DNA of 64,000 nucleotides from a virus: positions 32,001 through 96,000 of the IMG/VR virus record IMGVR_UViG_3300025930_000008; one strand, given 5' to 3'. This document shows positions 2,767 to 16,457 of this stretch, one piece after another (the first letter of the stretch is position 1; each line of letters opens with the position of its first letter). The notes below the pieces were generated by a model, which saw nothing but the letters and a program-made list of their open reading frames with translations, ran no database searches and was not told the origin of the DNA. The translations under genes were made by a program, and so were the position numbers.

Positions 2767-2839
2767 TAGCTCCGGTAGGAATTGAACCTACGCATGGAGG
2801 CTTATGAAACCTCTGCCTTAACCACTTGGCTACGGAGCC
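2767..2839 (-). tRNA. tRNA-Met(CAT), probably elongator (Ile2 not excluded)
   Basis: Cloverleaf; anticodon arm GAGGT-TT CAT AA-GCCTC. Confidence 0.85.
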
Positions 2840-2888
2840 AGGAGGGACCTGAGTTATTCATCCTCTTGAGGCACGGTCCCAATGCCTA

Positions 2889-2962
2889 CGGGATCGACGG
2901 GACTTGAACCCGCGACCTCCTGCGTGACAGGCAGGCGCTCTAACCGACTGAGCTACGACCCC
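2889..2962 (-). tRNA. tRNA-Asp(GTC)
   Basis: CCTGC-CT GTC AC-GCAGG; T-loop TTCAAGT. Confidence 0.95.
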
Positions 2963-3309
2963 TATGCTTGACCCCACTGACCAGCCCGAACTAAATCCAT
3001 TAGGCTACCGCCAGCTTCGATCCAGATAGTCAACGCTAGCTGAGCTATCTGTGCTTCTTTATTATTCGGAATCCTGATATGATCCTTGCTTGCTACCGCC
3101 TGCATCTTCGCCACGATATAATGGTGAACGTTACGGTGTCCAGTAGGACAGAGCGGTACAGTCTCGGGATGCCACAAACCTATGCCGGTGTCAGGTCGCC
3201 AGAACTTCTGCCACGCTTGAGGCACTACATGATGTAGCTCTTGGGCTATAGGTTTGGGCCTATGGAACATATGCGCATCGCATGTGCGCGCTGTTGTCAC
3301 AGGTATCAT
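2962..3309 (-). CDS. Small HNH-like endonuclease
   Basis: ELHHVVP...LCPTGHRNVH. Confidence 0.6.
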   Translation of the reverse strand: MIPVTTARTCDAHMFHRPKPIAQELHHVVPQAWQKFWRPDTGIGLWHPETVPLCPTGHRNVHHYIVAKMQAVASKDHIRIPNNKEAQIAQLALTIWIEAGGSLMDLVRAGQWGQA

Positions 3310-3317
3310 ACGTATTA

Positions 3318-3388
3318 AGCACCCGAAGGGAATCGAACCCTCAATCTCTGCTTGGAAGGCAGGGGTTATACCATTTAACTACGAGTGC
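3318..3388 (-). tRNA. tRNA-Gly(TCC)
   Basis: CCTGC-CT TCC AA-GCAGA. Confidence 0.93.
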
Positions 3389-3663
3389 ATGTTACGACAG
3401 GTCCAGCAAAGGTAATCATCCATGGCTGCTCGGCGTCCGCAACCATTCCCGCAGCGATTGGAAGCCACCATCCTCTTGACATTCTCGTCGGGCGTAGCCT
3501 TGACATTCGTAGCATTCAAGAAGATGCTTGATGATCGCCTCGCACTCCGCGCTGCTAATTGGCGGGTCTGTTGGTGGACGCCCACCCATCGCTTGTATCC
3601 TTTGAGATAACGTCCTTTCCGCCACTTACGCTTCGCTCCCTGTAGTGGTTTCTGTTGTGGCAT
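3379..3663 (-). CDS. Basic hypothetical protein with C-terminal DDYLC Zn-finger
   Basis: CGNGC...DDYLCWTCR; stop codon inside tRNA-Gly. Confidence 0.55.
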   Translation of the reverse strand: MPQQKPLQGAKRKWRKGRYLKGYKRWVGVHQQTRQLAARSARRSSSIFLNATNVKATPDENVKRMVASNRCGNGCGRRAAMDDYLCWTCRNMHS

Positions 3664-3664
3664 A

Positions 3665-3736
3665 TGGAGGATGAGGGAATCGAACCCTCAACTCCTGCGT
3701 GCAAGGCAGGCATGTTCCCGTTAGCACTAATCCCCC
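3665..3736 (-). tRNA. tRNA-Ala(TGC)
   Basis: CCTGC-CT TGC AC-GCAGG; G3:U70. Confidence 0.95.
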
Positions 3737-3945
3737 GCGTTGACTGGCTCAATTATGCCAGGCATGGCCCATCTTGTCAAGGCTGTTCTTCGACAGTCTG
3801 AGCATAGGTAGTCATCCCATGGTAAGAGTACAGGTTCACCGCACTCAGGACATGCTACCCCGTATTTATTCAACAACGTCTGTTCCGCTTTGCGTGCAGC
3901 CTGAGCGTAATAATCCCGCCACAATTGCGTAGTCGGGTCTACCAT
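3727..3945 (-). CDS. Hypothetical protein with DDYLC Zn-finger
   Basis: CPECG...DDYLCSDCR; stop inside tRNA-Ala. Confidence 0.65.
   Translation of the reverse strand: MVDPTTQLWRDYYAQAARKAEQTLLNKYGVACPECGEPVLLPWDDYLCSDCRRTALTRWAMPGIIEPVNAGD
3752..3780 (-). promoter_or_regulatory. Sigma-A/70-type promoter
   Basis: TTGACA-17 nt-CATAAT just upstream of tRNA-Ala. Confidence 0.7.
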
Positions 3946-3949
3946 ATCA

Positions 3950-4022
3950 AGCCGTCCAGGGGACTTGAACCCCTAACCCCCTGCTTACAAGGCAGGCGCT
4001 CTGCCAATTGAGCTAGGACGGC
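3950..4022 (-). tRNA. tRNA-Thr(TGT)
   Basis: CCTGC-CT TGT AA-GCAGG. Confidence 0.95.
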
Positions 4023-4024
4023 AG

Positions 4025-4669
4025 CTAGTGGAGCGCTGCCCATGTGCGCGCCCCAACTGTTCCATCTGCGGGTAGATTATGTGCCCGCTGGAACGCCTTG
4101 ACTGCTCGCTCAGTATTCTTTCCAAAGAATGGATTGTATCGGTTGCTGTTCGGCTTACCAGTGGCACCGGTTGAGAAATCTCGGATGCCATTATCATACA
4201 GAAGTTTCTTGAGCCGGACAACCGATGGACCCTTGGACTTATACTTGAGTACAGGGTCTACGTTGGCATCCTTGACAGCCGGGTAGCTACCGGGCTTCCA
4301 TTTAATATGCCACCACTCACTAGGAGCATCTGACCATCGTTTCGCAAAACCGTACTTGGCTCCGATCTGATCCACGATGTGACGCATTTGCGGTGTAGCA
4401 AGATCGACCGCCAGCCCCCATCCGTGATTTGAAGTACCTGGGTGGGCAGCGAGATTACCACGTCCTGACCGCCACAAATTCCATAGGTATTGCTGCTGTG
4501 CGTACGTCCGGTACGAGGACATACCGCCAGTTGGTCGAAGAGTAACCCCATACTTACGAACACTCTCCGCGTTCATTGCGTTCCATGCCTTTGCCGCGTC
4601 CTTTCGTAGACGGCCACCGGCAATGTCGCCTAGAGCAACGCCGGGTAGTCTGCCATTAAGGTAAGCCAT
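4025..4669 (-). CDS. Peptidase M15 (VanY-like) endolysin with C-terminal PG-binding domain
   Basis: SYRT, SNHGWGLAVD, EWWH motifs; TERAVKAFQRAHNLPADGTVG. Confidence 0.9.
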   Translation of the reverse strand: MAYLNGRLPGVALGDIAGGRLRKDAAKAWNAMNAESVRKYGVTLRPTGGMSSYRTYAQQQYLWNLWRSGRGNLAAHPGTSNHGWGLAVDLATPQMRHIVDQIGAKYGFAKRWSDAPSEWWHIKWKPGSYPAVKDANVDPVLKYKSKGPSVVRLKKLLYDNGIRDFSTGATGKPNSNRYNPFFGKNTERAVKAFQRAHNLPADGTVGARTWAALH

Positions 4670-4704
4670 TCCATAAACTTACCCACCAGCATGGAAATGA
4701 AAAA

Positions 4705-4775
4705 CTGGGGAACTAGGATTCGAACCTAGACGCTGAGTTCCAAAGACTCATGTGCTGCCGTTACACTATTCCCCA
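4705..4775 (-). tRNA. tRNA-Gln(TTG)
   Basis: TGAGT-CT TTG GA-ACTCA; U1:A72. Confidence 0.93.
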
Positions 4776-5134
4776 TCGGCGTAGCCAGGCTCAGGGTTAG
4801 AAGGTTCTTCGTTATCCATCCTGCGTAGACGCAGAACCATTTCACGAAGTTCCTTATCAGCCTTGTCCTGCGCTGCCTCAGTACGTGACGACTGCCAGCT
4901 TGACCAGTGAGCCACAACAATAGCATACAATGATAGCCAGGTAACAAAGAGAACTTGGTCACCAAAAGCTAAGGCTAATGGTATAGAAACTATCAGCCAG
5001 AAGATAGCAAACCAGCCGTGCAATCTCATGGCATGCTGTGAGTCAGCTAACCAGTTATGTACCTTCTTCATACATATTACATTGAGTTGTGAATGAAAAC
5101 AGTAGGCGGGATTCTGTTCTATCCATGCATCCAT
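4766..5134 (-). CDS. Two-TM membrane protein (holin-like); start uncertain
   Basis: Two hydrophobic segments then charged tail; upstream of the M15 lysin. Confidence 0.5.
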   Translation of the reverse strand: MDAWIEQNPAYCFHSQLNVICMKKVHNWLADSQHAMRLHGWFAIFWLIVSIPLALAFGDQVLFVTWLSLYAIVVAHWSSWQSSRTEAAQDKADKELREMVLRLRRMDNEEPSNPEPGYADGE

Positions 5135-5401
5135 CTATGCTCTCCACCTAGGGGATGCCCTTCCCCGGCTTGAGATTGCATCGCTTCGCTGACGGCAGAG
5201 GTACAAGCGCCCGCACCTATTTGTTGTGGCGGTAGGCGACCGCCTGTCGCTAAGGCTCCCTCCATTTTTACCCGCGCTCGTATCCCTTCCAGGGGATATG
5301 GCTCACGCAATGTCCCGACCTTCCTCGATATTTCTACCGCGCATGGTCGTAATCATTCACACTTAATGTTTATCGTCCACCAATAAACATATTATCGCCT
5401 C

Positions 5402-5566
5402 CTACCAGCGTCGTCCCCAACGGCCATCAGTGCCGCCGCCGAAGTAACTAAACAGTAGAACAACCAACAGCACAACAACTAGAATCCAAATCAGCTTGGT
5501 GAAAACAAAACCACCAACGACTGCTAGGACAACTAGGATTAGAAGTAGCAATAGTAATAGGTCCAT
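5402..5566 (-). CDS. 54-aa hydrophobic membrane peptide
   Basis: MDLLLLLLLILVVLAVVGGFVFTKLIWILVVVLLVVLLFSYFGGGTDGRWGRRW with GGAGG RBS; not in ORF track. Confidence 0.7.
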   Translation of the reverse strand: MDLLLLLLLILVVLAVVGGFVFTKLIWILVVVLLVVLLFSYFGGGTDGRWGRRW

Positions 5567-5609
5567 GATCCTCCCTTCATGCTATTAGCATACAGGAGGG
5601 CACGGATAA

Positions 5610-5680
5610 AGCGGCTAGCGGGAATCGAACCCGCAAATCTTGCATGGCAAGCAAGTAGGTTACCGTTACATCATAGCCGC
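5610..5680 (-). tRNA. tRNA-Gly(GCC)
   Basis: CTTGC-TT GCC AT-GCAAG. Confidence 0.93.
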
Positions 5681-5682
5681 AA

Positions 5683-5754
5683 CGCCCCTAATAGGAATCG
5701 AACCCATCCCTTGTGATCCGAAGTCACACGCGCTATCCAATACACCATAGGGGC
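5683..5754 (-). tRNA. tRNA-Arg(TCG)
   Basis: TGTGA-CT TCG GA-TCACA. Confidence 0.9.
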
Positions 5755-5755
5755 A

Positions 5756-5827
5756 TACCCCCGGTAGGAATCGAACCTACGCACTCGGTTCCGTAGACCG
5801 ACGCTCTATCCACTGAGCTACGAGGGC
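5756..5827 (-). tRNA. tRNA-Arg(ACG)
   Basis: TCGGT-CT ACG GA-ACCGA. Confidence 0.95.
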
Positions 5828-6013
5828 ACGTTCAGGTGCAATGACAGCACCATTGTTTACTAATTCCTGCGGGCTGTTATGGTAGTCACCATCATAACTA
5901 TGCTCATCCATGCGATACCAAACCGTAGATTCATCTACTCTTGTGATGGTACCCCATCCAGTATCTACCCAATACCCATTGTTGGGTAGGTATATCTTCC
6001 GCCCAACAGACAT
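5777..6013 (-). CDS. Hypothetical protein
   Basis: MSVGRKIYLP... start after the HNH stop; reads into tRNA-Arg(ACG). Confidence 0.5.
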   Translation of the reverse strand: MSVGRKIYLPNNGYWVDTGWGTITRVDESTVWYRMDEHSYDGDYHNSPQELVNNGAVIAPERALVAQWIERRSTEPSA

Positions 6014-6029
6014 AAGAGAATGGCGCTCT

Positions 6030-6701
6030 TTACGCAAGCGCCGCGAGAGCCATTGATACTTCGTGGGCAACGCTCGACTCAGCGGGTTCAAACTTACCCT
6101 CCATCCAGTCTTTGACAAGCCTAGCTTCATAGACTGAGCTAGACCCACGACCGATTAGTATGAGTAGCTTGGGACGCTGCTCGGACAGTGCCGTTAGGGC
6201 ACGGTCAGCAAACGCCTTTTCCTGTTCCGTGAGCAAATGAACGATAGATTTGGGTGTACCATTTCTGTCGTGAAGGTCACGGTGACAGTCTATGCAAACA
6301 GGGATGCAGTTTTCCTTGCGGTTAGACCACACTCTCTCGTAGGAATCTAGCTCTCGCAGAATCCAACGGTTGACAAAGTGGTGCTTGGTACTGTCGCCTT
6401 CCTTACCACAAAGTCTACAGGGTGGAGCAACTCTTCTCTGCTCTCTGAACTTATCCCTGCGCCTGCGTATGAGGTCAGGTATCTCGGGAATCTGACCAAG
6501 CGCTTCCCTGAGTCGCTTAAGACATTCAGCCTGCTTAATGCCAGCCTCAAGCAAATCTTCTAGGTCCACATTCTCAACGGACGCCAGCAATTCAAGCTGT
6601 TCATCCGTAGCCTTCTGATGGCTCTGGTTTATCTCAAACCAGTGATGCGGATTGAGGCATGGACTATCACAGCCGATGCCGATGTGCCTTGCGCGACTCA
6701 A
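6030..6701 (-). CDS. HNH endonuclease family protein
   Basis: CRLC...TKHHFV...NCIPVCIDCHRDLH. Confidence 0.75.
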   Translation of the reverse strand: MSRARHIGIGCDSPCLNPHHWFEINQSHQKATDEQLELLASVENVDLEDLLEAGIKQAECLKRLREALGQIPEIPDLIRRRRDKFREQRRVAPPCRLCGKEGDSTKHHFVNRWILRELDSYERVWSNRKENCIPVCIDCHRDLHDRNGTPKSIVHLLTEQEKAFADRALTALSEQRPKLLILIGRGSSSVYEARLVKDWMEGKFEPAESSVAHEVSMALAALA

Positions 6702-6715
6702 ACCTTCCCCCTTTC

Positions 6716-7024
6716 TTACGTTTCGGTATCCTCCCTACACTTAGGGCAGAGATAGTCGTCATCGAGCGTGAAGTATGTCTCAACACACTCACCACAAGTA
6801 GCATTACCTACGGGTGGAGCCAATACCTCCACCTCTTGGATCTGATAGCGCGGGCGATGCTTCTGATGATGGTAGAGAACCGTCAGCCTACCCTCTTTGA
6901 GCGCCTTGTGATAGCTGCTCTTAGGATTGTCACGAATCTCTTTCAACCGCGCGACTACTTCATCAGGAGAGTGTAGATCACGCCCCTTCTGAACAGTCTT
7001 GGCCTTGTACCAATCAACCTGCAT
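6716..7024 (-). CDS. Hypothetical protein with DDYLC Zn-finger
   Basis: Start MQVDWY; CGEC...DDDYLCPKCR. Confidence 0.65.
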   Translation of the reverse strand: MQVDWYKAKTVQKGRDLHSPDEVVARLKEIRDNPKSSYHKALKEGRLTVLYHHQKHRPRYQIQEVEVLAPPVGNATCGECVETYFTLDDDYLCPKCREDTET

Positions 7025-7364
7025 CGCGGCACTCCGGGCAAAGGTAATCGTCCCCAAAGAACGGGGACTCACACTCAGCACAGGGCTTAGCACCAGGCGG
7101 AACACCTTCGTTGAGTACCATTACAGCCCAAGGCTTAGCGACGGGTTCTTCCTCATCCTTATCAGGAATCTTTACCATCATCTTCTTCCCGGTACCCATA
7201 GGAGTTTCGGGTCGGACCTTAGAGTTGTAATGAATCTCCAACTCAGAGTCAGCGTGCCTTCCAGCGCCCTTGCTAATCTTAGCCGCGTACTTCTCGGCTT
7301 CGTCCAAGGTGGCGAAGGTCTTGAGTGGGTATGCGCTTCTGACAATCACCAAGGCCACGTCCAT
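7014..7364 (-). CDS. Hypothetical protein with DDYLC Zn-finger
   Basis: CAEC...GDDYLCPECR. Confidence 0.7.
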   Translation of the reverse strand: MDVALVIVRSAYPLKTFATLDEAEKYAAKISKGAGRHADSELEIHYNSKVRPETPMGTGKKMMVKIPDKDEEEPVAKPWAVMVLNEGVPPGAKPCAECESPFFGDDYLCPECRDAG

Positions 7365-7495
7365 CCGATGACAACAGGACCAATATGAAAGGTATACACC
7401 TTCCCTTGTGTCTCTGCATCGAGAATTGTCTTAGCGACAAAGAAGAATGGGATGCCCCATAGCTTCATCCTAAACTGTCCGTCGATCTGTTGCAT
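7346..7495 (-). CDS. 49-aa leaderless hypothetical protein
   Basis: MQQIDGQFRMKLWGIPFF...; ATG 6 nt after a -10 box. Confidence 0.5.
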   Translation of the reverse strand: MQQIDGQFRMKLWGIPFFFVAKTILDAETQGKVYTFHIGPVVIGWTWPW

Positions 7496-7501
7496 GGCCC
7501 C

Positions 7502-7530
7502 AGGATACCAGGGCGTCAGGGGAAATGCAA
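7502..7530 (-). promoter_or_regulatory. Sigma-A-type promoter for a leaderless mRNA
   Basis: TTGCAT-17 nt-TATCCT-6 nt-ATG. Confidence 0.55.
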
Positions 7531-7531
7531 G

Positions 7532-7604
7532 TAGCGCGTACGGGAATCGAACCCGTGTTACCGCCTTGAGAGGGCGGCGTATTAGGCCACTATACTAACG
7601 CGCC
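7532..7604 (-). tRNA. tRNA-Glu(CTC)
   Basis: CCGCC-CT CTC AA-GGCGG. Confidence 0.93.
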
Positions 7605-7607
7605 ATG

Positions 7608-7728
7608 TAGGGACGTTCATTTGTCGCTTTGGGCCACTCCCTATTAGGGGAGGTACGCTCGCCACACGTACAACTGACACGGGTTCAATACCCGCCGCCT
7701 CTTGACACGGGGTATCCGCCCGTCCCTA
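7608..7728 (-). ncRNA. Multi-branched structured RNA (~120 nt)
   Basis: TAGGGACG/CGTCCCTA closing stem; hairpins CGGGT/ACCCG, GTACG/CGTAC, CTCCC/GGGAG. Confidence 0.55.
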
Positions 7729-8100
7729 AGTTCTGTGTTCCTGGCAGAGAAAGTCACCGGGTAGCGCCGGGTCCCCACACTCTGCACAAAGTAGCTCACC
7801 ATCGAGCGGTTGGGAATTCAATGCGTCAACTCTTTCCTTGCCCGTGGCAAGAAGTGCGTACCACTTACGCTTGAACTCGGTATCCTGTAGGTTAACAGAG
7901 CCAAGGTCATGCCAACTGTTCGGTTGCTCCGTATGACCAATACAAATCCAAGCCGAACTATACTTCTTAGTTGTTTTGCCTTCTTTCTCTACGGGTGCAG
8001 CAGGCAAAGTAAACATATACCACTGATTTGCAGCTTCATGCTCAGGATATCGCATCTTCTTCGCTATCGTTTTGTTACGCAGTTCACGAATGTTACCCAT
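7726..8100 (-). CDS. Hypothetical protein with variant (GDFLC) Zn-finger
   Basis: CAECG...GDFLCQEHR. Confidence 0.65.
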   Translation of the reverse strand: MGNIRELRNKTIAKKMRYPEHEAANQWYMFTLPAAPVEKEGKTTKKYSSAWICIGHTEQPNSWHDLGSVNLQDTEFKRKWYALLATGKERVDALNSQPLDGELLCAECGDPALPGDFLCQEHRT

Positions 8101-8103
8101 CAA

Positions 8104-8177
8104 TACCCCCACTAGGACTCGAACCTAGAACCTTGAGATTAAAAGTCTCCTACTCTAACCAATTGAGTTATGGGGGC
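8104..8177 (-). tRNA. tRNA-Lys(TTT)
   Basis: GGAGA-CT TTT AA-TCTCA. Confidence 0.93.
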
Positions 8178-8185
8178 GCGTCCCC

Positions 8186-8614
8186 TCATACGAGGATGAG
8201 GGGAGTCACATCTACCGACTCTAGATGCTCAAAGTATCCATCCCACGGACGATACATTCGGTTCGTACGCTTCTGGTTATTGTCTGCGTGGCAGAGTCGC
8301 TGCGCAGTATAAGCATCCTGTAGGTCTGCCTTAACAGCCGGGATGGTCCACGCTCCATGAGAGCCGAACGTTCCTCCGGTTGTATAGGTGACGACTACTA
8401 GATAAGCATTCTGACCTGGCTCGATTTCATCGTAACCATAAATATCATCATAATCACTCAACTGCTGCGCGTCCCAGCCAGTTAGCTGAGTTGTGCTGAT
8501 CTTATTGATCGACACGGTAAGACCATAGTCTCCCTGATGGAGCCATGGTCCGTCGCCTTCCTCTGGCGGACTTATCTGGTAAGTATACTCAGAGAACTCT
8601 ACCCAATAGGTCAT
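8186..8614 (-). CDS. Hypothetical phage protein
   Basis: 142-aa ORF filling the inter-tRNA gap. Confidence 0.65.
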   Translation of the reverse strand: MTYWVEFSEYTYQISPPEEGDGPWLHQGDYGLTVSINKISTTQLTGWDAQQLSDYDDIYGYDEIEPGQNAYLVVVTYTTGGTFGSHGAWTIPAVKADLQDAYTAQRLCHADNNQKRTNRMYRPWDGYFEHLESVDVTPLILV

Positions 8615-8641
8615 CGCACGACCCTTTCTTTACTTGTTAGG

Positions 8642-8714
8642 GGTGAACGACGGGAGTCGAACCCGCATCTACATGGACCACAACCATGTGCATTACCATT
8701 ATGCTACGCTCACC
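8642..8714 (-). tRNA. tRNA-His(GTG)
   Basis: CATGG-TT GTG GT-CCATG; encoded G-1:C73. Confidence 0.93.
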
Positions 8715-8722
8715 ATGTTCAG

Positions 8723-8805
8723 TACGCCCGGTGGGATTTGAACCCACAATGCCGCAAGGCCAGAAGGGTTTAAGCCTCCCGCGTATACCGTTCCGCCACG
8801 GGCGC
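8723..8805 (-). tRNA. tRNA-Leu(TAA)
   Basis: GGAGG-CT TAA AC-CCTTC; long variable arm. Confidence 0.92.
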
Positions 8806-8808
8806 TAG

Positions 8809-8881
8809 CTGCCGAGCTAGGGATCGAACCTAGACTTTCCTGATCCAGAGTCAGGCGTGTTTCCAGTTACACCACTCGGCA
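8809..8881 (-). tRNA. tRNA-Gln(CTG)
   Basis: CCTGA-CT CTG GA-TCAGG. Confidence 0.92.
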
Positions 8882-9123
8882 ATAATCTTCCTATCCATGG
8901 CGACAATCTTACCACGGCCATTGAAATCGTGCTGTCTCAACGTCCAATAGATCGTAGGCTCATCAATATCCTCCGCCTTAGGTTTAGTTAGCTGCCAGCG
9001 TCTGGAATGCGTCCGACAAAATACCTTGCCAGGGACCACTACATGCCCACAGACATAACACATACCCGTACTATCACGTCCATGACGCTTAGGATTAAGC
9101 TCACGAAATAGTTCCTTGGTCAT
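8851..9123 (-). CDS. Hypothetical protein with CxxC...CxxH finger
   Basis: MTKELF...CYVCG...FCRTH; stop inside tRNA-Gln(CTG). Confidence 0.5.
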   Translation of the reverse strand: MTKELFRELNPKRHGRDSTGMCYVCGHVVVPGKVFCRTHSRRWQLTKPKAEDIDEPTIYWTLRQHDFNGRGKIVAMDRKIIAEWCNWKHA

Positions 9124-9125
9124 AG

Positions 9126-9207
9126 TACCGGGAGCGGGATTTGAACCCGCACGCTTATCAGGCATCGGGGTTTGAGGCCGACGTGTCTACCATTCCACCA
9201 TCCCGGC
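9126..9207 (-). tRNA. tRNA-Leu(CAA)
   Basis: TCGGC-CT CAA AC-CCCGA; long variable arm. Confidence 0.9.
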
Positions 9208-9215
9208 ATAGGTTA

Positions 9216-9287
9216 TAGCGCGACGGGGAATCGAACCCCGGTTACAGGCTTGAAAGGCCCGCGTCCTAACCATTAAACGACCGCGCC
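9216..9287 (-). tRNA. tRNA-Glu(TTC)
   Basis: CGGGC-CT TTC AA-GCCTG. Confidence 0.93.
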
Positions 9288-9363
9288 TAGCGAGAGAGTC
9301 GGATGAAGTGAACACGCAGCGTGTTCTATGAGGGTAGGATAACCGCTCTCTCATACCTACCAA

Positions 9364-9436
9364 TGGGCACGGTTGGAATCGAACCAACGACTTCCACCTT
9401 ATCAGAGTGGCGCTCTAACCGCTGAACTACGTGCCC
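9364..9436 (-). tRNA. tRNA-Ile(GAT)
   Basis: CCACT-CT GAT AA-GGTGG. Confidence 0.95.
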
Positions 9437-9437
9437 G

Positions 9438-10175
9438 TTAGGGTAATTGCCTTAGAGAATGCTTGCCCATCGGGATGCAAGCCTCACCATCATCATTCAA
9501 GATAGTCTCCAAGTCCTCAACTCGTAAGAAACAATCTCCGTCCAGACCCCAGGTCTTGCCCCAGGAGTTGCGCAAGCGTACCACATGAAGCTCGCCGTGT
9601 CCAGGGAATCGACGCTTGAGGGCATGACCGCGTACACAAATAGCATGACCACCGACGTGCTGTCCAGAAATGTCAAGCAGCCCGGAAGGGTCCGGGTCAA
9701 ACATGCTATCGCGCCACCAAATGCCAATTTCCACGACACCGTGGTTAGATAAGGTGGCTAGTACGTCATCAATGCTGAACGCCCAACGGTATGAGTCAAT
9801 GAACCCATACTGTTGCATGATCTTCGCACCTGACAATACAGAAGTACCATCGTTGTGCGGATTAGCGCCAGGGTATGCTCCACCCGGCCAAGGATCATTC
9901 TTTTGAGCTTCCCAATAGACCTTTTGCTCTGCAAAGCTATTGGAAATACCTCGCGTGTGATCTTTGTACGCTGAGGCGCAGTGGCTCCATGAGAAACCTA
10001 CACAAGCACCCTCTTGTCCCTGGTCTAACCAGACTGGACACTGCCAAGTCTTAGTCTTTAGCGTCTCGGGGACCAGACCACGGATATCGTAGTCCTTTGA
10101 GCGGTCATCGAACTCTTGGAGTCTATCGAGCCGCCTGTCTTGTGTATCTGTACCGTCGCGTAGAGTAGGCATCAC
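9438..10175 (-). CDS. Papain-family (C1A-like) cysteine peptidase
   Basis: DQGQEGACVGFS, GGHA, RNSWG catalytic motifs. Confidence 0.9.
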   Translation of the reverse strand: MMPTLRDGTDTQDRRLDRLQEFDDRSKDYDIRGLVPETLKTKTWQCPVWLDQGQEGACVGFSWSHCASAYKDHTRGISNSFAEQKVYWEAQKNDPWPGGAYPGANPHNDGTSVLSGAKIMQQYGFIDSYRWAFSIDDVLATLSNHGVVEIGIWWRDSMFDPDPSGLLDISGQHVGGHAICVRGHALKRRFPGHGELHVVRLRNSWGKTWGLDGDCFLRVEDLETILNDDGEACIPMGKHSLRQLP

Positions 10176-10194
10176 CCATTACGCTACGGAGGCA

Positions 10195-10266
10195 TGGCGA
10201 ATATTGGAGTCGAACCAATGACGCGAGGTTCTTCAGACCTCCGCTCTACCACTGAGCTAATTCGCC
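10195..10266 (-). tRNA. tRNA-Phe(GAA)
   Basis: GAGGT-CT GAA GA-ACCTC. Confidence 0.95.
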
Positions 10267-10348
10267 AAGTGAAGGCGGTTCGCCCCGCACCTTACGAACC
10301 CGAATCGTACGCGGTGGGCATAGGACACTAGTAATCCATTACCGCCAG

Positions 10349-10438
10349 CGGAGAGTGTAGGATTCGAACCCACGCGCCGGTTCAAGGCCGACCAACGGTT
10401 TTCAAGACCGCCCCAATAGTCCACTCTGGCAACTCTCC
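10349..10438 (-). tRNA. tRNA-Ser(TGA)
   Basis: GCGGT-CT TGA AA-ACCGT; long variable arm. Confidence 0.95.
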
Positions 10439-10439
10439 A

Positions 10440-10872
10440 TGTCGTGTATAAATAAGCTGCGAGAGGCATAGCGTCCGCAGCTAAGATAGCCCGAATTGCA
10501 AGGTAAAGGTCAGGCCCTAGGCTCATCTGGCACAGCCGGGGTGTCCGTCCCTACGTAGGTTCATTCCAGGCCACGACTACCTAGCTGAAACCTATACCTC
10601 GGAGGCGTTCGCAGCCCCAAGCGGGTGAAGAACCACTTCAACCTTTAAGTTTAGAAACCTCCTGTTCGATGACAAATGATAGACATTTCAACCGACCTGA
10701 GCGTGTCCGTGGATACTGTGTTCGCACGCAGCGGTCAAGCACTCGGCCCCATATCCTTTTCGGCTGGCTACTCCGTCGCCCTTGCACAGTCATAGGTTTC
10801 TAAGGGTTCCCGCCCTCCACCTAATCTTCCCGCACAGTATGTGTCAGTCTATAAGCCTCAGGTTCTCAGCCA
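10440..10872 (-). ncRNA. Large pseudoknotted structured RNA candidate
   Basis: ~430 nt without a credible ORF; three long-range helices, two of them crossing. Confidence 0.55.
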
Positions 10873-11094
10873 CTATTGGCCCTGTCCTAACCACCCTTGT
10901 AGGTGACTTTTATCTGCGACAACCTCTACATTGAGAGGGTCCCATGGTTGGGGCTGATCCCGTAGTGATTCATCCTCGGGATTTTCTGCCACAATCCAAG
11001 TGATGCCAGGATCGCTGTGAGCATACTCCCCCCAATACTTCAATGCATCGGCTTCGCTCACCACTCGGCCATACAGACCGTAGTAGTGATTCAA
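10873..11094 (-). CDS. Hypothetical protein (start uncertain)
   Basis: Open frame between tRNA-Cys and the ncRNA; TTG start assumed. Confidence 0.4.
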   Translation of the reverse strand: MNHYYGLYGRVVSEADALKYWGEYAHSDPGITWIVAENPEDESLRDQPQPWDPLNVEVVADKSHLQGWLGQGQ

Positions 11095-11121
11095 GATAAG
11101 GTATCTGACCTTAGTCTTGCA

Positions 11122-11192
11122 AGGCAAGGACGGGAGTCGAACCCGTGTTACAGGTTTTGCAGACCCGCGCGTAGCCATTCCGCCACCTTGCC
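11122..11192 (-). tRNA. tRNA-Cys(GCA)
   Basis: CGGGT-CT GCA AA-ACCTG; U73. Confidence 0.95.
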
Positions 11193-11306
11193 ATTACGTC
11201 GTAGACATTCCTCACGGTCACAATTACATGCGTTCTGACAAACGAAACCCTTGTGACACTCACAGTCTTTGATGGGCTGTTCACAAATAGTACATTTCCA
11301 TACCAT
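11148..11306 (-). CDS. Small Cys-rich protein
   Basis: MVWKCTICEQPIKDCECHKGFVCQNACNC; stop inside tRNA-Cys. Confidence 0.45.
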   Translation of the reverse strand: MVWKCTICEQPIKDCECHKGFVCQNACNCDREECLRRNGKVAEWLRAGLQNL

Positions 11307-11308
11307 AG

Positions 11309-11380
11309 CTCGCCGGGTAGGACTTGAACCTACAACCATTCGGTTAACAGCCGAACGCTCTGCCATTGAGCTACCGGCGA
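11309..11380 (-). tRNA. tRNA-Asn(GTT)
   Basis: TTCGG-CT GTT AA-CCGAA. Confidence 0.95.
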
Positions 11381-11631
11381 CTGTTGATCCAACTATCTAG
11401 ACACGCCTTATGAGTGGGCAGTAACTCCCAATCAGCGTGCCAAGTACCCTGCACAATGTCAAAGGTTTCCGTACCTTCGTCTGACCACTCGCCACCCATG
11501 CGTTGTATTTTACACGGGATTCCCTGGCGTCCTTCCTGAGCCTGTTCAACTGTAATGATACGCCAGATCGCACATTCGCTTTTATCAAAGCGGTAGTTTG
11601 CATATATTCTACCGACTAGCGGCTCTTTCAT
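11371..11631 (-). CDS. Hypothetical protein
   Basis: 86-aa ORF filling the gap; stop at tRNA-Asn nt 8-10. Confidence 0.55.
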   Translation of the reverse strand: MKEPLVGRIYANYRFDKSECAIWRIITVEQAQEGRQGIPCKIQRMGGEWSDEGTETFDIVQGTWHADWELLPTHKACLDSWINSRR

Positions 11632-11632
11632 A

Positions 11633-11705
11633 TGCCCCCAACAGGGATCGAACCTGTGACCTTGAGATTAAGAGTCTCCTGCTCTACCGGCTGAGCTATA
11701 GGGGC
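11633..11705 (-). tRNA. tRNA-Lys(CTT)
   Basis: GGAGA-CT CTT AA-TCTCA. Confidence 0.93.
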
Positions 11706-11769
11706 GATGATTGGTCATTCCCCTTACCCCTAGGGAATCGTTACTGGATGGGCAACCAATCAAGTTGTA

Positions 11770-11849
11770 TGGCGGGTGGAGGAATCGAACCTCATTACGC
11801 TCTCGCCAGCTAGGTTATGAGCCTTGCTGCCCAAACCTGGGCACCCGCG
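11770..11849 (-). tRNA. Atypical CAT tRNA (initiator-like)
   Basis: CGCGGGTG 5' end with unpaired C1, shrunken D-arm, CTCATAA loop, long variable region, TTCGATT T-loop. Confidence 0.7.
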
Positions 11850-11863
11850 TCGTAAATTTGCTA

Positions 11864-11949
11864 CGGAGAGTGGGGGATTTGAACCCCCGGTACCCACTGG
11901 ATACTCCGTCTTAGCAGGACGGTGCATTAAGCCACTCTGCCAACTCTCC
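11864..11949 (-). tRNA. tRNA-Ser(GCT)
   Basis: CCGTC-CT GCT AA-GACGG. Confidence 0.95.
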
Positions 11950-12135
11950 CTGTGTGATACGTGGCACCCACGTACCCCTTTTAACTAAGGCGAAAAACTC
12001 TATCAACGTACACTTAGAACTATCCGTCAATCCATCTACACGGCCGTCTGTGTAAGTCCAATAAACTCTTTCCGTCTTAGGATCATAGAGATAATCCTTC
12101 ACCATTGCGTTCGCTTCCCAACGAAAAGAAATCAT
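11911..12135 (-). CDS. Hypothetical protein
   Basis: 74-aa ORF; stop in the tRNA-Ser anticodon loop. Confidence 0.45.
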   Translation of the reverse strand: MISFRWEANAMVKDYLYDPKTERVYWTYTDGRVDGLTDSSKCTLIEFFALVKRGTWVPRITQGELAEWLNAPSC

Positions 12136-12136
12136 A

Positions 12137-12208
12137 CGGCCCCGGTGAGAATCGAACTCACATCTATCCCTTAGGAGGGGATCGTTCTGTCCATTATACT
12201 ACAGGGCC
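12137..12208 (-). tRNA. tRNA-Arg(CCT)
   Basis: ATCCC-CT CCT AA-GGGAT. Confidence 0.9.
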
Positions 12209-12264
12209 AGAAGCAGGGCATTTCAGCCCCACCCACGTCACCGCTTTAGGACAACGGCTGCCTG

Positions 12265-12468
12265 TCAGATATCCATAGCGCACTGGTTAACGCAATCCCG
12301 ACAACAATTGCACACCGTATCGTAATCGCCACCGATTTCCTCTGCATACGGACAGCCATGAGGAATCTCTCCCTCATTACCGCAGTTACAGAGCGGACTG
12401 ATTGCCGATAACAACCAGTCTTTGACAACCTGCTTGTAAATATGCATACGTATTTGCACAGCAGGCAT
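12265..12468 (-). CDS. Small Cys-rich protein
   Basis: CNCG...HGCPYAEEI...CNCCRDCVNQCAMDI. Confidence 0.55.
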   Translation of the reverse strand: MPAVQIRMHIYKQVVKDWLLSAISPLCNCGNEGEIPHGCPYAEEIGGDYDTVCNCCRDCVNQCAMDI

Positions 12469-12540
12469 AGGCCAGGATGGATTTGAACCATCGACCCGCA
12501 CCTTATAAGAGTGCCGCTCTAACCCCTGAGCTACTGGCCC
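12468..12540 (-). tRNA. tRNA-Ile(TAT)
   Basis: GCACT-CT TAT AA-GGTGC; body resembles tRNA-Ile(GAT). Confidence 0.92.
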
Positions 12541-12549
12541 AATTAGTTA

Positions 12550-12728
12550 GAGGATCGTATATGGGGGACTTACTTCATGGATAGGTACGCACTACGCCGG
12601 GGCGACCACACCCCTCTCGGCCAGCACGCATACTCCTAGATGTAGTCAACATCGTTAGTGACCTATATCAATCCGCTTACCCTTATCCCACCTGCGCACT
12701 GTGGGCGGCAATTATCCGTCCGATCCTC
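12550..12728 (-). ncRNA. Structured RNA (~180 nt)
   Basis: GAGGATCG/CGATCCTC closing stem fills the Thr-Ile spacer; internal CCCAC/GTGGG, GATGT/ACATC, GGGG/CCCC hairpins. Confidence 0.55.
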
Positions 12729-12729
12729 A

Positions 12730-12801
12730 AGCCCGCGAGGGGAATCGAACCCCTATCCCTGCTTTACGAAAGCAGTATAATAGCCGTTATACTACGCGGG
12801 C
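12730..12801 (-). tRNA. tRNA-Thr(CGT)
   Basis: CTGCT-TT CGT AA-AGCAG. Confidence 0.92.
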
Positions 12802-12899
12802 GACTTACTTATCAGGCACAATCATAGTGCCTTTACAGATGGGACATACCCTACCATTGTTAAGGATGCCCCCTTTCATCTTGCATTTACAATCCATAG

Positions 12900-13349
12900 T
12901 GGAGGTGGGCGGAATTGAACCGCCGTCCTGCGTACACTTGTTGACTCAGTTTCTAGCAGCTTTGTAATACAATACTGGCAACCGGTTCTGAGCCGCCTAC
13001 CCTTACTCTACCACAAGATACGGCAGACTCATGCTAGTGACTGTTTGAAATAGTCGGGAGCAGCCTGTTGTTCCGTACACCCTGCTGTCGAGATTACTCA
13101 CCACGCAATGGAAATACCATTAGAGTGGAGCCGAGTAAGCCAATTAGATTGACCGTCTAATCTTTCCAAACAAGGATTTGGGACTTTATACCCCGGCCAC
13201 GCTTTCTGTTCCTAGGTCCGTGGCTCCTGACCCGAGCGGACTAAGCCGCTAGAGCAAACGTATGAGTGTCTGCAATTATTGTTAGTGGTAGGCCACTACC
13301 CGCTGCACTAAGGCAACCGCATCTTACACAGTCGATGCCTGTCACCCCC
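12900..13349 (-). ncRNA. ssrA: tmRNA; tag reading frame ADTHTFALAA* at 13273-13241
   Basis: 5' GGGGGTGACAGGCATCGAC; 3' GACGGCGGTTCAATTCCGCCCACCTCCA; G3:U70; AATAATT before GCA resume codon; ALAA-stop. Confidence 0.95.
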
Positions 13350-13553
13350 ATGATTATCAGCCTCCACCTAGCCTTATTAGACTAACGTCTAGCTTACGGC
13401 CTCGCTCTAGATTTGCTGACACGGAGCGAATTAAAGTTTATGCCGGATTTCTTGGACGGCTCCGGCAACCGCCCATAAGGAGTTTATGAAAGGTGGTACC
13501 TCAACAAGACCGCGATATTCGCCTTGTTCCTCTCATAGACTCCACCAAGTTAT

Positions 13554-13686
13554 ACGAGAGTCCACTGTGCCGTAGCCACTCCGAACGGTTCCTGCCGTCC
13601 CGCACTAGCCTCACGGTCTAGGCGATGGTCGGGAGACAATCTCCCCCTTGGGGCAGTCCATCCCAACTTAGAAGTAGAACTCTCTA
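13554..13686 (-). ncRNA. Structured RNA (~130 nt) with CAGGAA hairpin
   Basis: GAGAGTT/GACTCTC closing stem; ACGG-CAGGAA-CCGT. Confidence 0.5.
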
Positions 13687-13687
13687 G

Positions 13688-13757
13688 TAGACCGGGCAGG
13701 ATTCGAACCTGCAATGAACAATGATAAAGATTGTTTGTGTACCGTACACACCGGTCA
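13688..13757 (-). tRNA. tRNA-Pyl-shaped element with TTA (ochre) anticodon
   Basis: TGACCGG T GTGT ACGGT ACAC A AACAAT CTTTATC ATTGTT CATT GCAGG TTCGAAT CCTGC CCGGTCT A. Confidence 0.7.
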
Positions 13758-13824
13758 AGCCCCGGCATAGGGTTCCCGCCCTATGTTACTCCGGGGTCGT
13801 CCACGGACAATTAGTCGATGGACA

Positions 13825-13896
13825 TGGGCCGCACTGGAATCGAACCAGTGACTTCCTGCGTGTCGAGCAGGCGTTCTACCGCTGAACTAGCGGCCC
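13825..13896 (-). tRNA. tRNA-Val(GAC)
   Basis: CCTGC-TC GAC AC-GCAGG (C33). Confidence 0.9.
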
Positions 13897-13995
13897 TAGT
13901 TACGTGAGCTAGCTTACTCACTTCGCTAGCTCACACCCAAAACAACGCCTGATTCTGACGATGCGTGAGCGGGATGGTTGACCAACCAGAACAAC

Positions 13996-14024
13996 AGTTT
14001 AGCCGATGTTCTGGCGACTGTCAA
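13996..14024 (-). promoter_or_regulatory. Sigma-A/70-type promoter
   Basis: TTGACA-17 nt-TAAACT upstream of Val(GAC), the ochre element and tmRNA. Confidence 0.7.
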
Positions 14025-14026
14025 GC

Positions 14027-14188
14027 TTATCGGGACGAGAGGTAAACGCCTTCTATCTTTGCCCCACTGTACTCCTGCTTGTCAATCGCGTCTGCAACAG
14101 CAAGACCAACATCTTGGCGCAAGTCAAACTTCTTGATAGGCGCCAACGTCGTCGGAATGGTGATGACCACCGTGATTGTATTATCCAT
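14027..14188 (-). CDS. 53-aa hypothetical protein
   Basis: MDNTITVVITIPTTLAPIKKFDLRQDVG...; not in ORF track. Confidence 0.45.
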   Translation of the reverse strand: MDNTITVVITIPTTLAPIKKFDLRQDVGLAVADAIDKQEYSGAKIEGVYLSSR

Positions 14189-14214
14189 GCTAAAAACGTA
14201 GCACGACTGTCAAG

Positions 14215-14286
14215 TGGACCCGGCTGGGATCGAACCAGCGACCTTCTGCTTGTAAGGCAGACGTTCTCCCACTAAACTACGGGTCC
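14215..14286 (-). tRNA. tRNA-Val(TAC)
   Basis: TCTGC-CT TAC AA-GCAGA. Confidence 0.93.
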
Positions 14287-14289
14287 GCA

Positions 14290-14365
14290 GCAGGCTCCCT
14301 CATGGGGCGTACCTCCCATAGACACTACCCGACAGGTTCCCGCCTGTCAAGGCGAGGGAACCTGC
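14290..14365 (-). ncRNA. Three-way-junction RNA with CGGGAA hairpin
   Basis: GCAGGTTCCCTC/GAGGGAGCCTGC stem enclosing GACAGG-CGGGAA-CCTGTC and ATGGG/CCCAT. Confidence 0.55.
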
Positions 14366-14427
14366 GTGCTTAATCCCCGTGGGTACGCACGGATTAGGTA
14401 CTGCGATGGCCCCTGACTGATGGGCAG

Positions 14428-14499
14428 AGCCGTCACCGGGAATCGAACCCGGCTTACTAACTTACCAAGCTAGGGTAATATCCGATATACTATGACGGC
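14428..14499 (-). tRNA. tRNA-Thr(GGT)
   Basis: CTAGC-TT GGT AA-GTTAG. Confidence 0.9.
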
Positions 14500-14502
14500 T
14501 TA

Positions 14503-14576
<74 letters not shown>

Positions 14577-14741
14577 TTACAAATGACTGAATACATAAGT
14601 CACAGCAGAGATACCATGACTAATGAAACTCATGATACCGGTGGCAGCAGCCACCTTGAGGTACCACAATTCCTTACGGCTGAGCGTAACCTTTTCCTCA
14701 GCCTTCTTTATGGCTTTAAGTTTCGCTTCTTCCTTGTCCAT
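14577..14741 (-). CDS. Small membrane protein
   Basis: MDKEEAKL... charged N-terminus and one C-terminal TM segment. Confidence 0.5.
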   Translation of the reverse strand: MDKEEAKLKAIKKAEEKVTLSRKELWYLKVAAATGIMSFISHGISAVTYVFSHL

Positions 14742-15066
14742 TGAGCGCCTTGCTTTGACGCCGCTTATACCCAAAGATCAAGTAGAGCGCGACATTCCCT
14801 GCGATGAATCCCACCGCATTCAGCGGGATATAGTAGGAAAACCCTGTGTCAAGTCTCTCAACGTTGTTAGTCAACGCTGACGTGGCTAAGAGCAGATACG
14901 AAACGGCAATGAGTACAACATGGAGCGGCAGCAGAGCTACATATCCTCCCTGCTTGCGCAGTTTGAGGTAGCTCTGGGTATATACCACCACAATCAGCAC
15001 CACAAACGACACAATGCCTCCGTACAGAAAGATATTCAAGTATCGGAGGCCATCCAAAATGCTCAT
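14716..15066 (-). CDS. Three-TM membrane protein
   Basis: Three hydrophobic segments, basic tail. Confidence 0.65.
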   Translation of the reverse strand: MSILDGLRYLNIFLYGGIVSFVVLIVVVYTQSYLKLRKQGGYVALLPLHVVLIAVSYLLLATSALTNNVERLDTGFSYYIPLNAVGFIAGNVALYLIFGYKRRQSKALNGQGRSET

Positions 15067-15080
15067 GCTCTATTACCTAG

Positions 15081-15151
15081 CGGGGGATCGAGGATTTGAA
15101 CCCCGAAGTTCGGGTTTGGAGGCCGACAGTTTACCATTAGCTTAATCCCCC
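15081..15151 (-). tRNA. tRNA-Trp(CCA)
   Basis: TCGGC-CT CCA AA-CCCGA; G73. Confidence 0.9.
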
Positions 15152-15452
15152 AGGAGCGCACGGAGGGAGCGCGAGATTCTCTCACCCCTCGGTTATGTGA
15201 ACAGACTTGTCATACGCCGACTTCACGCGGGCGGATTCTAACCATAGACCCTAAGGCGTATAGTTCATATGTGACTATACCGCGAAGGGACTCCGTTTCC
15301 ATCGAATACTCCTGAACGCATGGTGCCATCTGAAACAATCGTCATTGCCACGCCGCTTTTCGCTACTTGTATACTGCCCTCCGGGGATCAATCCATCCAG
15401 ACGCATACGTTTGCTCGCTACAGCCGTGCGCATGTATTGAGCAATGACGAAG

Positions 15453-15534
15453 TACGCCCGGAGGGACTTGAACCCCCACACCTTTCGGCATCAGGACCTA
15501 AACCTGACGTGTCTACCGATTCCACCACGGGCGC
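15453..15534 (-). tRNA. tRNA-Leu(TAG)
   Basis: TCAGG-TT TAG GT-CCTGA. Confidence 0.93.
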
Positions 15535-15668
15535 TAGTACCGATAACGTTCAAGGAAGGGCTGTTATCGGTGTTATCGTGCGACTGCCATTGGACCATAT
15601 TCATAGTCGAGAGCCTTGCGCCGCTGCATGATACCCCGGATTCCCGTCCGGCATATTCATGCCTGATA

Positions 15669-15751
15669 TGCGATCAGTGAGAGTCGAACTCACACGCCTG
15701 TTAGGGCACTGACCCCTCAAGCCAGCGTGTCTACCATTTCACCATGATCGC
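15669..15751 (-). tRNA. tRNA-Leu(GAG)
   Basis: CTGGC-TT GAG GG-GTCAG. Confidence 0.93.
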
Positions 15752-15765
15752 TAAAGATTTTGAAA

Positions 15766-15847
15766 TGGCGGGAGTAGGATTCGAACCTACGAAGGCATAG
15801 CCGTCTGATTTACAGTCAGATGCGTTTGACCGCTCCGCAACCCCGCC
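15766..15847 (-). tRNA. tRNA-Tyr(GTA)
   Basis: TCTGA-CT GTA AA-TCAGA. Confidence 0.95.
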
Positions 15848-15856
15848 GAATAAACA

Positions 15857-15972
15857 CTTGGGCACCTAGATTGGGTGCGACCCTTCTCTTTCAAGTCAAC
15901 TTCCTCCTGCCTAGCCTTATCCGGGCAGATGGTTCGCCGTATCTACGGCTGATCTAGGAGTTGGCTCCCAAG
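15857..15972 (-). ncRNA. Structured RNA candidate (~115 nt)
   Basis: CTTGGG/CCCAAG and CCTAGAT/ATCTAGG nested closing stems; GCCGTA/TACGGC and CTGCC/GGCAG hairpins. Confidence 0.45.
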
Positions 15973-16007
15973 CTATGTAGTTTTTGTCAGTCTACCAGAC
16001 TGTCAAG

Positions 16008-16080
16008 CGCCCCCGCCCGGATTTGAACCGGGAACCTGCGGTTTAGAAGGCCGCTGCGCTATCCGTTGCGCCACAGGGGC
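16008..16080 (-). tRNA. tRNA-Arg(TCT)
   Basis: GCGGC-CT TCT AA-ACCGC. Confidence 0.92.
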
Positions 16081-16082
16081 AT

Positions 16083-16110
16083 AAAAAAGGCGACCCTCTT
16101 TGGTCGCCCC
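16083..16110 (-). terminator. Intrinsic terminator directly upstream of the first tRNA
   Basis: GGGGCGACC-aaagag-GGTCGCC-TTTTTT. Confidence 0.8.
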
Positions 16111-16457
16111 CGTCTTACACCTATCGTATGGGTAGACGAGAGCTAGACCAGGGGCTTACGACCTCCGATAAAGGCGTCCCAATTCTGATGTTCGGTCGAA
16201 TATCTCATACTCGTCTGATTCTTAGTGCAGGCGGGGCACCCGTTTTATAGGTCCCCGCGATGGTCGTTTCACGATAGCAGATGGTCCGGTGGAGTCAAGA
16301 GCGCCAACGCGCCAAGACGGATCGGGGCACCTTCACCTTTGGCGAATGACCCTCAGGCCGATCACAAGGATAGCCGTCACCACCATTGCCGGGTGCCCAC
16401 CAGACCACCCCATCCCACTTCACGCGATAGATACAGTATCTACAATCAGCACTGAAT

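Follow-up and report, generated by a model that had tools for sequence, protein, structure and literature searches.

We analysed a 64,000-nucleotide stretch of viral DNA, hereafter the window, which spans bases 32001-96000 of an uncultured virus record 107 kb long (IMG/VR record IMGVR_UViG_3300025930_000008), with an estimated completeness of 67%. Downstream of a class II ribonucleotide reductase gene (16458-18158), the minus strand carries an array of transfer RNA (tRNA) genes that also holds a transfer-messenger RNA (tmRNA) gene, a gene resembling RNase P RNA, an endolysin gene and small open reading frames (ORFs) lodged between the tRNAs, with every feature of the array on that same strand (Table 1). 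Nine of these ORFs are coding sequences upstream of a same-strand tRNA whose stop codon lies at or past the RNase P site, an overlap rate of nine among about 36 tRNAs. Transfer RNA and tmRNA genes were called with ARAGORN and Rfam and ORF stops were placed by a frame walk; the three approaches agree on the stop positions of all nine ORFs and reproduce each of those listed in an initial annotation of this DNA.

Table 1 Genes and RNA features of the array, with positions in the window (aa, amino acids; nt, nucleotides; Zn, zinc)
Feature	Position	Strand	Description
ORF	2962..3309	-	115 aa with HNH-like motifs; ATG 8 nt past tRNA-Gly(tcc); stop formed by TA and G1 of tRNA-Asp
ORF	3379..3663	-	94-aa Zn-ribbon protein (C..C..DYLCxxCR); ATG 1 nt past tRNA-Ala; TAG at nt 8-10 of tRNA-Gly(tcc) 3318-3388
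ORF	3727..3945	-	72-aa Zn-ribbon protein; ATG 4 nt past tRNA-Thr(tgt); TAG at nt 8-10 of tRNA-Ala 3665-3736
ORF	4766..5134	-	Two-helix membrane protein; TAG at nt 8-10 of tRNA-Gln(ttg) 4705-4775
ORF	5777..6013	-	78 aa; TAG at nt 49-51 of tRNA-Arg(acg); tRNA encodes the final 16 residues
ORF	8851..9123	-	90 aa with CxxC; ATG 2 nt past tRNA-Leu(caa); TGA at nt 29-31 of tRNA-Gln(ctg)
ORF	11148..11306	-	52 aa, Cys-rich; ATG 2 nt past tRNA-Asn; TAA at nt 43-45 of tRNA-Cys
ORF	11371..11631	-	86 aa; ATG 1 nt past tRNA-Lys(ctt); TAG at nt 8-10 of tRNA-Asn 11309-11380
ORF	11911..12135	-	74 aa; ATG 1 nt past tRNA-Arg(cct); TAA at nt 37-39 of tRNA-Ser(gct); tRNA encodes the final 12 residues
tRNA array	2767..16080	-	35 Rfam-supported tRNAs plus two ARAGORN calls absent from the gathering-threshold Rfam scan
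RNase P RNA-like gene	5087..5358	-	Bacterial class A-like, 272 nt; RF00010 40.2 bits, E 5e-11, full model span
Phage tmRNA	12897..13349	-	RF00023 68.8 bits (gathering score 47); G3:U70; no encoded CCA
Endolysin (VanY + PG_binding_1)	4025-4669	-	Within the tRNA array; ends 2 nt before tRNA-Thr(tgt)

Measured from the start of the tRNA, stop positions vary continuously between about -17 and +49. A stop triplet occupies nucleotides (nt) 8-10 in 23 of 35 tRNAs (20 TAG, 2 TAA and 1 TGA). Where alignments could be used (ORFs 3379..3663, 3727..3945 and 5777..6013), the protein tails encoded by the tRNA fall outside the conserved parts of the proteins. Four further ORFs (10257..10526, 7644..7802, 10638..10793 and 12246..12467) were judged spurious or doubtful, 10257..10526 running through an entire tRNA. 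For comparison we used the closest relative, G001 (array contig L087), whose reductase is 75% identical and whose 39 tRNAs stand in the same order as in the window, with a tmRNA at the same place.

Coding evidence for the overlapping ORFs

Scored with a codon model against spurious ORFs nested in long genes, six of the nine overlapping ORFs rank in the top 2-3% (2962..3309 in the top 3%), and two, 11148..11306 and 3379..3663, have ambiguous scores. The frames of the seven ORFs that fill their spacers were each open in just 0.3-7% of shuffles (0.3% for 2962..3309, 0.8% for 8851..9123 and 7% for 11148..11306), and their joint openness is far below chance. Protein homologues are present in G001 for three of the nine, at 30-57% identity, and Cys motifs are conserved; the other six have no homologue there. 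Two of the three, 3379..3663 and 3727..3945, belong to a zinc-ribbon family ending in DYLCxxCR, whose G001 homologues are 38-57% identical (57% for 3379..3663), and the homologue of 4766..5134 is 34% identical. For 11911..12135 we found an 86%-identical variant of equal length with an identical tail and a protein-like pattern of substitutions, and residues 9-60 of 5777..6013 match a repeat domain of large proteins, the tail having no match. Taken together, this sequence evidence argues that at least eight of the nine are genuine genes, and 11148..11306 appears the weakest of the set, given its Cys-rich product, its ambiguous score and the frequency with which its spacer is open in shuffles.

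The proteins themselves are diverse. HNH-like motifs, recognized by eye, occur among the overlapping ORFs only in 2962..3309, for which a Pfam search gave no match despite these motifs; the other eight encode zinc-ribbon, membrane or unknown proteins, and searches against Pfam and PHROG returned no nuclease match among the overlapping ORFs. A larger ORF with HNH-like motifs, 6030..6701, has no tRNA overlap. Word-indexed protein searches with 3379..3663 and 11371..11631 retrieved the query itself only, by a method that missed the known G001 homologue, and an Atlas search with 8851..9123 gave no usable match. As a separate observation, a C-terminal zinc-ribbon module (CxxC ... D[YF]LCxxCR) is carried by at least five otherwise different small proteins of the window (3379-3663, 3727-3945, 6716-7105, 7014-7364 and 7726-8112, minus strand) and by several small G001 proteins.

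Overlaps in relatives and choice of reading frame

Credible ORFs of G001 end at -2 to -17 before 11 tRNAs and inside three others, namely tRNA-Met (nt 8), tRNA-Ala (nt 8) and tRNA-Glu(ctc) (nt 20); its endolysin gene ends at -2, with a TAG that borrows G1 of tRNA-Thr(tgt). Among the three comparable homologues, only the tRNA-Ala overlap is shared between the two phages. In G001 the counterpart of 3379..3663 ends on a TGA of its own, 6 nt short of tRNA-Asp, and that of 4766..5134 on a TAA of its own, 8 nt short of tRNA-Gln, and 3727..3945 is represented by two paralogues in the same spacer, one starting 2-3 nt past tRNA-Thr(tgt) and the other ending on the TAG at nt 8-10 of tRNA-Ala. The initial annotation had proposed conservation of the overlaps in relatives as a check, and the outcome does not favor a designed timer or sensor: two of the three homologues stop before a tRNA, only the tRNA-Ala overlap being kept in G001. 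With these two homologues carrying their own stops, and with the residues added by the tRNA falling beyond the conserved protein regions, the overlaps look like one extreme of a continuous range of very tight packing, stable over short distances but not across the distance to the nearest relative. A further genome, G003, about 80% complete, has two possible overlaps whose coding potential is unvetted, and no tmRNA match above cut-off.

The frame in which an ORF enters the tRNA is not evenly distributed. Of the 13 credible overlapping ORFs, ten (6/9 here and 4/4 in G001) enter in the frame that runs into the nt 8-10 triplet (P = 0.0016, or P = 0.004 without the shared tRNA-Ala case). If the stop were always removed before the ribosome arrived, the three frames would be expected to be used equally; a preference for the nt 8-10 frame, which leaves the shortest tail, hence suggests that selection sees these stops and that ribosomes reach them on uncut RNA. 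The bias implies, within a small sample, that stops inside tRNAs would be read before cleavage.

A likely RNase P RNA and a tmRNA within the array

The RNase P RNA-like gene contains the CR-I and CR-V motifs and lacks much of the specificity domain. A longer, syntenic copy in G001 (L087:16293-16788, plus strand) lies between tRNA-Gly(gcc) and tRNA-Gln(ttg), matches the model end to end and has textbook CR-I and CR-V motifs. The strands of P1 and P2 differ in sequence between the two copies, yet they are complementary in both. Although the copies score 40.2 and 25.4 bits, both under the RF00010 gathering score of 100, we regard 5087-5358 as a likely reduced RNase P RNA. A literature search of incomplete coverage turned up no published phage RNase P RNA. 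ORF 5119..5310, which lies over this gene, was rejected as a protein gene, and because 5087-5358 is RNase P RNA-like, the start of ORF 4766..5134 was moved to ATG 5071 (101 aa), probably its true start, 15 nt past the RNA gene; the G001 homologue likewise starts 15 nt past its RNase P RNA.

The tmRNA gene scores above the curated threshold and has tRNA-like ends with G3:U70 and a tag reading frame. Both the gene and its tag, ADTHTFALAA, had been proposed in the initial annotation and are borne out by the Rfam alignment; the different tag offered by ARAGORN was rejected in favor of the aligned one. A tag ending in ALAA resembles the usual degradation tags. The tmRNA of G001, about 550 nt long and at the same place (L087:5914-6464, plus strand), encodes the tag ADTHQFALAA, retains G3:U70 and shows compensatory changes in the acceptor stem relative to the window. 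Rfam and ARAGORN both miss this gene, probably owing to insertions, and it was recognized from its ends and tag frame. When viral contigs were searched with a degenerate form of the tmRNA tag, G001 alone was retrieved. Genes for the protein partners RnpA and SmpB were not found in the sequenced part of the phage.

Abutting starts and a putative leaderless layout

At their 5′ ends, seven of the nine overlapping ORFs start 1-8 nt past the discriminator of the upstream tRNA (five of them at 1-2 nt) and take up the spacer in full. Across both phages an ATG lies 1-4 nt past the discriminator of 14 of 72 tRNAs (7/35 in the window and 7/37 in G001; P ~1e-4). At the one syntenic pair, the zinc-ribbon ORF that follows tRNA-Thr(tgt), both phages retain the abutting start, and a 30-aa ORF (12805..12897) directly follows the tmRNA in the same manner. 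The sequence layout is therefore one of messages that abut tRNAs on both sides without an untranslated leader.

Starts placed this close to a tRNA leave no space for a Shine-Dalgarno site, and in the phage as a whole Shine-Dalgarno-like motifs are barely above background (29% of long ORFs against 17% of random positions). At promoter-like sites (TTGACN, 16-18 nt, TANNNT), an ATG or GTG start codon lies 6-8 nt past the -10 element in 7 of 12 cases in the phage's own genome and in 5 of 6 in G001, a spacing that corresponds to the predicted layout of leaderless transcripts. No -10-like element stands at leaderless distance (5-8 nt) before any tRNA-abutting ORF. The initial annotation described the array as an operon, a designation that our counts do not establish, since promoter-like and terminator-like sites within the array are no more numerous than in shuffles.

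None of the array tRNAs encodes CCA. A PolyA_pol/CCA-adding family domain, in a 1198-aa ORF outside the window (G000:C1:13594-17190), would fit a phage whose tRNAs all lack it. Only 2962..3309, with TA before G1, has a form suited to completion of the stop by an added A. The first base 3′ of the discriminator is C or T at every tRNA of the window array and of L087, mostly as CT or T(A/T). TTGAC also stands immediately 3′ of the Arg-tct and Val-tac tRNAs of the window and of three tRNAs in G001, and this sequence and the trailer-base bias may represent a 3′ processing signal, or promoters.

RNA support comes from one rhizosphere metatranscriptome, in which exact contigs fall within the array and none over the flanking genes (1-2468 and 16043-17893); such contigs cannot show RNA ends, and the parts they leave uncovered carry no meaning. 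One contig, 11356-11542, extends from ORF 11371..11631 25 nt into tRNA-Asn, short of our bridging criterion, and offers a weak hint of an ORF-tRNA co-transcript, with DNA carry-over as a possible source.

Source of the record and unusual tRNA genes

The window sequence recurs across many rhizosphere and soil metagenomes. A near-identity DNA search against cultured phages matched shared tRNAs only and gave no close cultured relative, and none of the relatives reached via the endolysin has tRNAs. The DnaE-type polymerase of the phage is about 30% identical to polymerases of Gordonia and Rhodococcus phages; together with the leaderless layout and the tmRNA tag, this hints at an actinobacterial host.

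Three tRNA-like genes depart from the norm. The gene at 13688-13757 (minus strand; Rfam 36.3 bits) has the anticodon UUA, which would read the UAA stop; because its acceptor stem is topped by a U:U pair and position 37 is a pyrimidine, it could be either a suppressor or a decayed tRNA. At 11770-11849 (minus strand) ARAGORN alone calls an 80-nt tRNA-Met with an odd extra arm. The corresponding place in G001, ahead of tRNA-Lys(ctt), is occupied by a normal tRNA-Met, so the window copy may have decayed or expanded. In G001 itself, a tRNA at L087:11419-11492 (plus strand, 60.7 bits) has an eight-base anticodon loop, and ARAGORN assigns it the anticodon ttat.

Interpretation of the overlaps

On balance we lean towards an account in which the overlaps reflect tight packing, with stops inside tRNAs tolerated and protein yield capped incidentally, and with no dedicated timer or sensor. 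The array would be a phage island for tRNA production, comprising about 36 tRNAs together with a tmRNA and a reduced RNase P RNA, with small accessory genes squeezed into the spacers, where U8-A9-G10 of the next tRNA would offer a ready-made TAG in one frame. Trimming of the 3′ end of the upstream tRNA would release a near-leaderless mRNA starting almost at its AUG, and the first ribosomes, translating behind the polymerase, would terminate at the stop within the still-uncut tRNA. The RNase P cut at +1 would then leave a message without a stop, and later ribosomes would be rescued by host or phage tmRNA. As the stop is lost at this cut, the overlap would cap yield automatically, as a side effect. 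Genome compaction had been entered in the initial annotation as a caveat; the continuum of stops, the poor conservation of the overlaps in G001 and the frame bias make it the better explanation.

Several observations sit less comfortably with packing as the whole account. Overlaps occur at 9 of 14 credible ORF-tRNA junctions here and at 4 of 14 in G001, and the rate also exceeds that of phage T5; the 86%-identical variant of 11911..12135 retains the tRNA-Ser overlap (nt 37); and a functional link would be in keeping with the conservation of tmRNA and RNase P RNA in one block. The frame test draws on 13 cases, leaderless translation is predicted from the phage sequence, and the RNA support, consisting of contigs unable to show ends, is weak.

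The likeliest of the alternatives is a selected expression limiter of the kind proposed for T4 segB, in which the overlap would be kept since removal of the stop restrains proteins whose excess does harm, for example nucleases and small DNA- or RNA-binding zinc ribbons, so that few molecules are made per transcript. This has been put forward in print for segB and for the F-Tfl nucleases of T5, where hegC and hegD overlap tRNAs, and it would accommodate the HNH-like motifs of 2962..3309 and 6030..6701, the high overlap rate and the retention of the tRNA-Ala overlap in G001 and of the tRNA-Ser overlap in the variant. We nevertheless consider it unlikely here: most of the overlapping ORFs are not nucleases and none has a Pfam nuclease match, two of three G001 homologues carry their own stop, the larger HNH-like ORF is free of overlap, and the stop positions are continuous. 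A still more sweeping doubt, that some or all of the ORFs are untranslated and the spacers are leader or trailer RNA open by accident, could draw on the two ambiguous coding scores, on the six ORFs without a G001 homologue and on ORF 5119..5310 of the same block, which turned out to be an RNA gene. It strikes us as highly improbable in the face of the joint openness of seven spacers, the conserved Cys motifs in homologues of 30-57% identity, the protein-like substitutions of the 86% variant and the match of one ORF to a repeat domain of larger proteins.

The initial annotation went further than packing and read the nine messages as non-stop by design, their proteins being tagged for destruction except when RNase P or trans-translation fails, with the phage tmRNA as part of the circuit. 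Its reasoning on how processing creates non-stop messages is sound, and is already in print for T4 segB and T5; the designed timer or sensor built on it is unsupported by comparison, and we hold it to be very unlikely. The frame bias towards the earliest stop indicates that stops are read, the nine proteins share no common function, and the overlaps are poorly conserved in G001, which has the same tmRNA. T5 has overlaps yet no tmRNA annotated within the stretch of T5 examined, and the unvetted overlaps of G003 occur without a tmRNA match above cut-off in a record about 80% complete. What speaks for a circuit is that the tmRNA and the RNase P RNA-like gene share a block that is conserved in G001, and that the tag ends in the ALAA of usual degradation tags. 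The precedent of arfA (cited in PMC4131195) points the same way.

Relation to known systems

In phage T4, maturation of tRNA-Arg has been proposed to sever the segB message past its last codon and ahead of its stop, limiting its expression (Brok-Volchanskaya et al. 2008, PMC2330249), and the same idea of stop removal is cited there for T5 nucleases. In the T5 record (NC_005859), T5.057, hegD, hegC and T5.069 are annotated as ending 6-24 nt inside tRNAs. The array described here resembles these cases, which include nuclease genes, in having same-strand small genes among phage tRNAs that end at or inside the next tRNA. It differs in a higher rate of overlap (9 of about 36 tRNAs against 4 of 25 in T5), in that most of its genes are not nucleases, in the addition of a tmRNA and an RNase P RNA-like gene to the block, and in its starts, which lie 1-8 nt past the upstream tRNA (1-2 nt in five of seven spacer-filling ORFs), compared with 17-20 nt for the three T5 gaps measured.

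Among bacteria, 250 overlaps with an upstream coding sequence were reported for 115,660 tRNA and tmRNA genes (about 0.2%), in few lineages (Hudson, Lau and Williams 2014, PMC4131195), and the same study discusses smpB/ssrA of Carsonella. As there, maturation of the overlapping RNA gene should strip the upstream message of its stop, but what is rare in bacteria involves a quarter of the tRNAs of this one phage. This contrast, together with the 0.3-7% of shuffles in which the spacers are open, suggests that the overlaps are more than chance. Annotation rules usually trim or discard genes whose ends fall within a tRNA gene; in this array such genes appear real and frequent, and even if tight packing is all that is at work, gene callers should still permit stops at nt 8-10 of tRNAs in phage arrays.

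The regulation of arfA is similar in that a nuclease cut removes the stop and yields a tmRNA substrate. However, arfA is one conserved gene with an active truncated product, whereas the array has nine unrelated genes with poorly conserved overlaps and no sign that truncated products work; a stop-less design is not conserved in the homologues here, two of three in G001 stopping before a tRNA.

In animal mitochondria, mRNAs are flanked by tRNAs, start at or near the processed 5′ end, and have stops that the 3′ cut leaves incomplete or removes. The array shares with this punctuation the direct flanking of messages by tRNAs and start codons at or next to what would be a processed 5′ end. It departs from it in that most stops lie inside the tRNA and are not completed by A, as only that of 2962..3309 could be, in that processing is here predicted from the layout, and in the presence of extra promoter-like sites. 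A bolder reading would treat the phage array as mitochondria-like, with a phage RNase P ribozyme and 3′ trimming producing both tRNAs and leaderless mRNAs, stop-less messages giving a first burst of protein only, tmRNA clearing the stalled ribosomes, and tRNA maturation thereby setting the yield of the spacer proteins; we regard this as possible but doubtful. A literature search of incomplete coverage found no account of tRNA punctuation in phages; the reviews of punctuation that it listed (PMC8601606 and PMC4394434) concern animal mitochondria. If the punctuated, leaderless reading holds, this would be the first counterpart of mitochondrial RNA punctuation that we have found in a bacterial virus, and it would assign a concrete role to phage-encoded tmRNA and RNase P RNA. 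What sets the array apart from the known cases is the combination of its overlap rate, its abutting starts with their apparently leaderless design, and the presence together of a tmRNA and an RNase P RNA-like gene.

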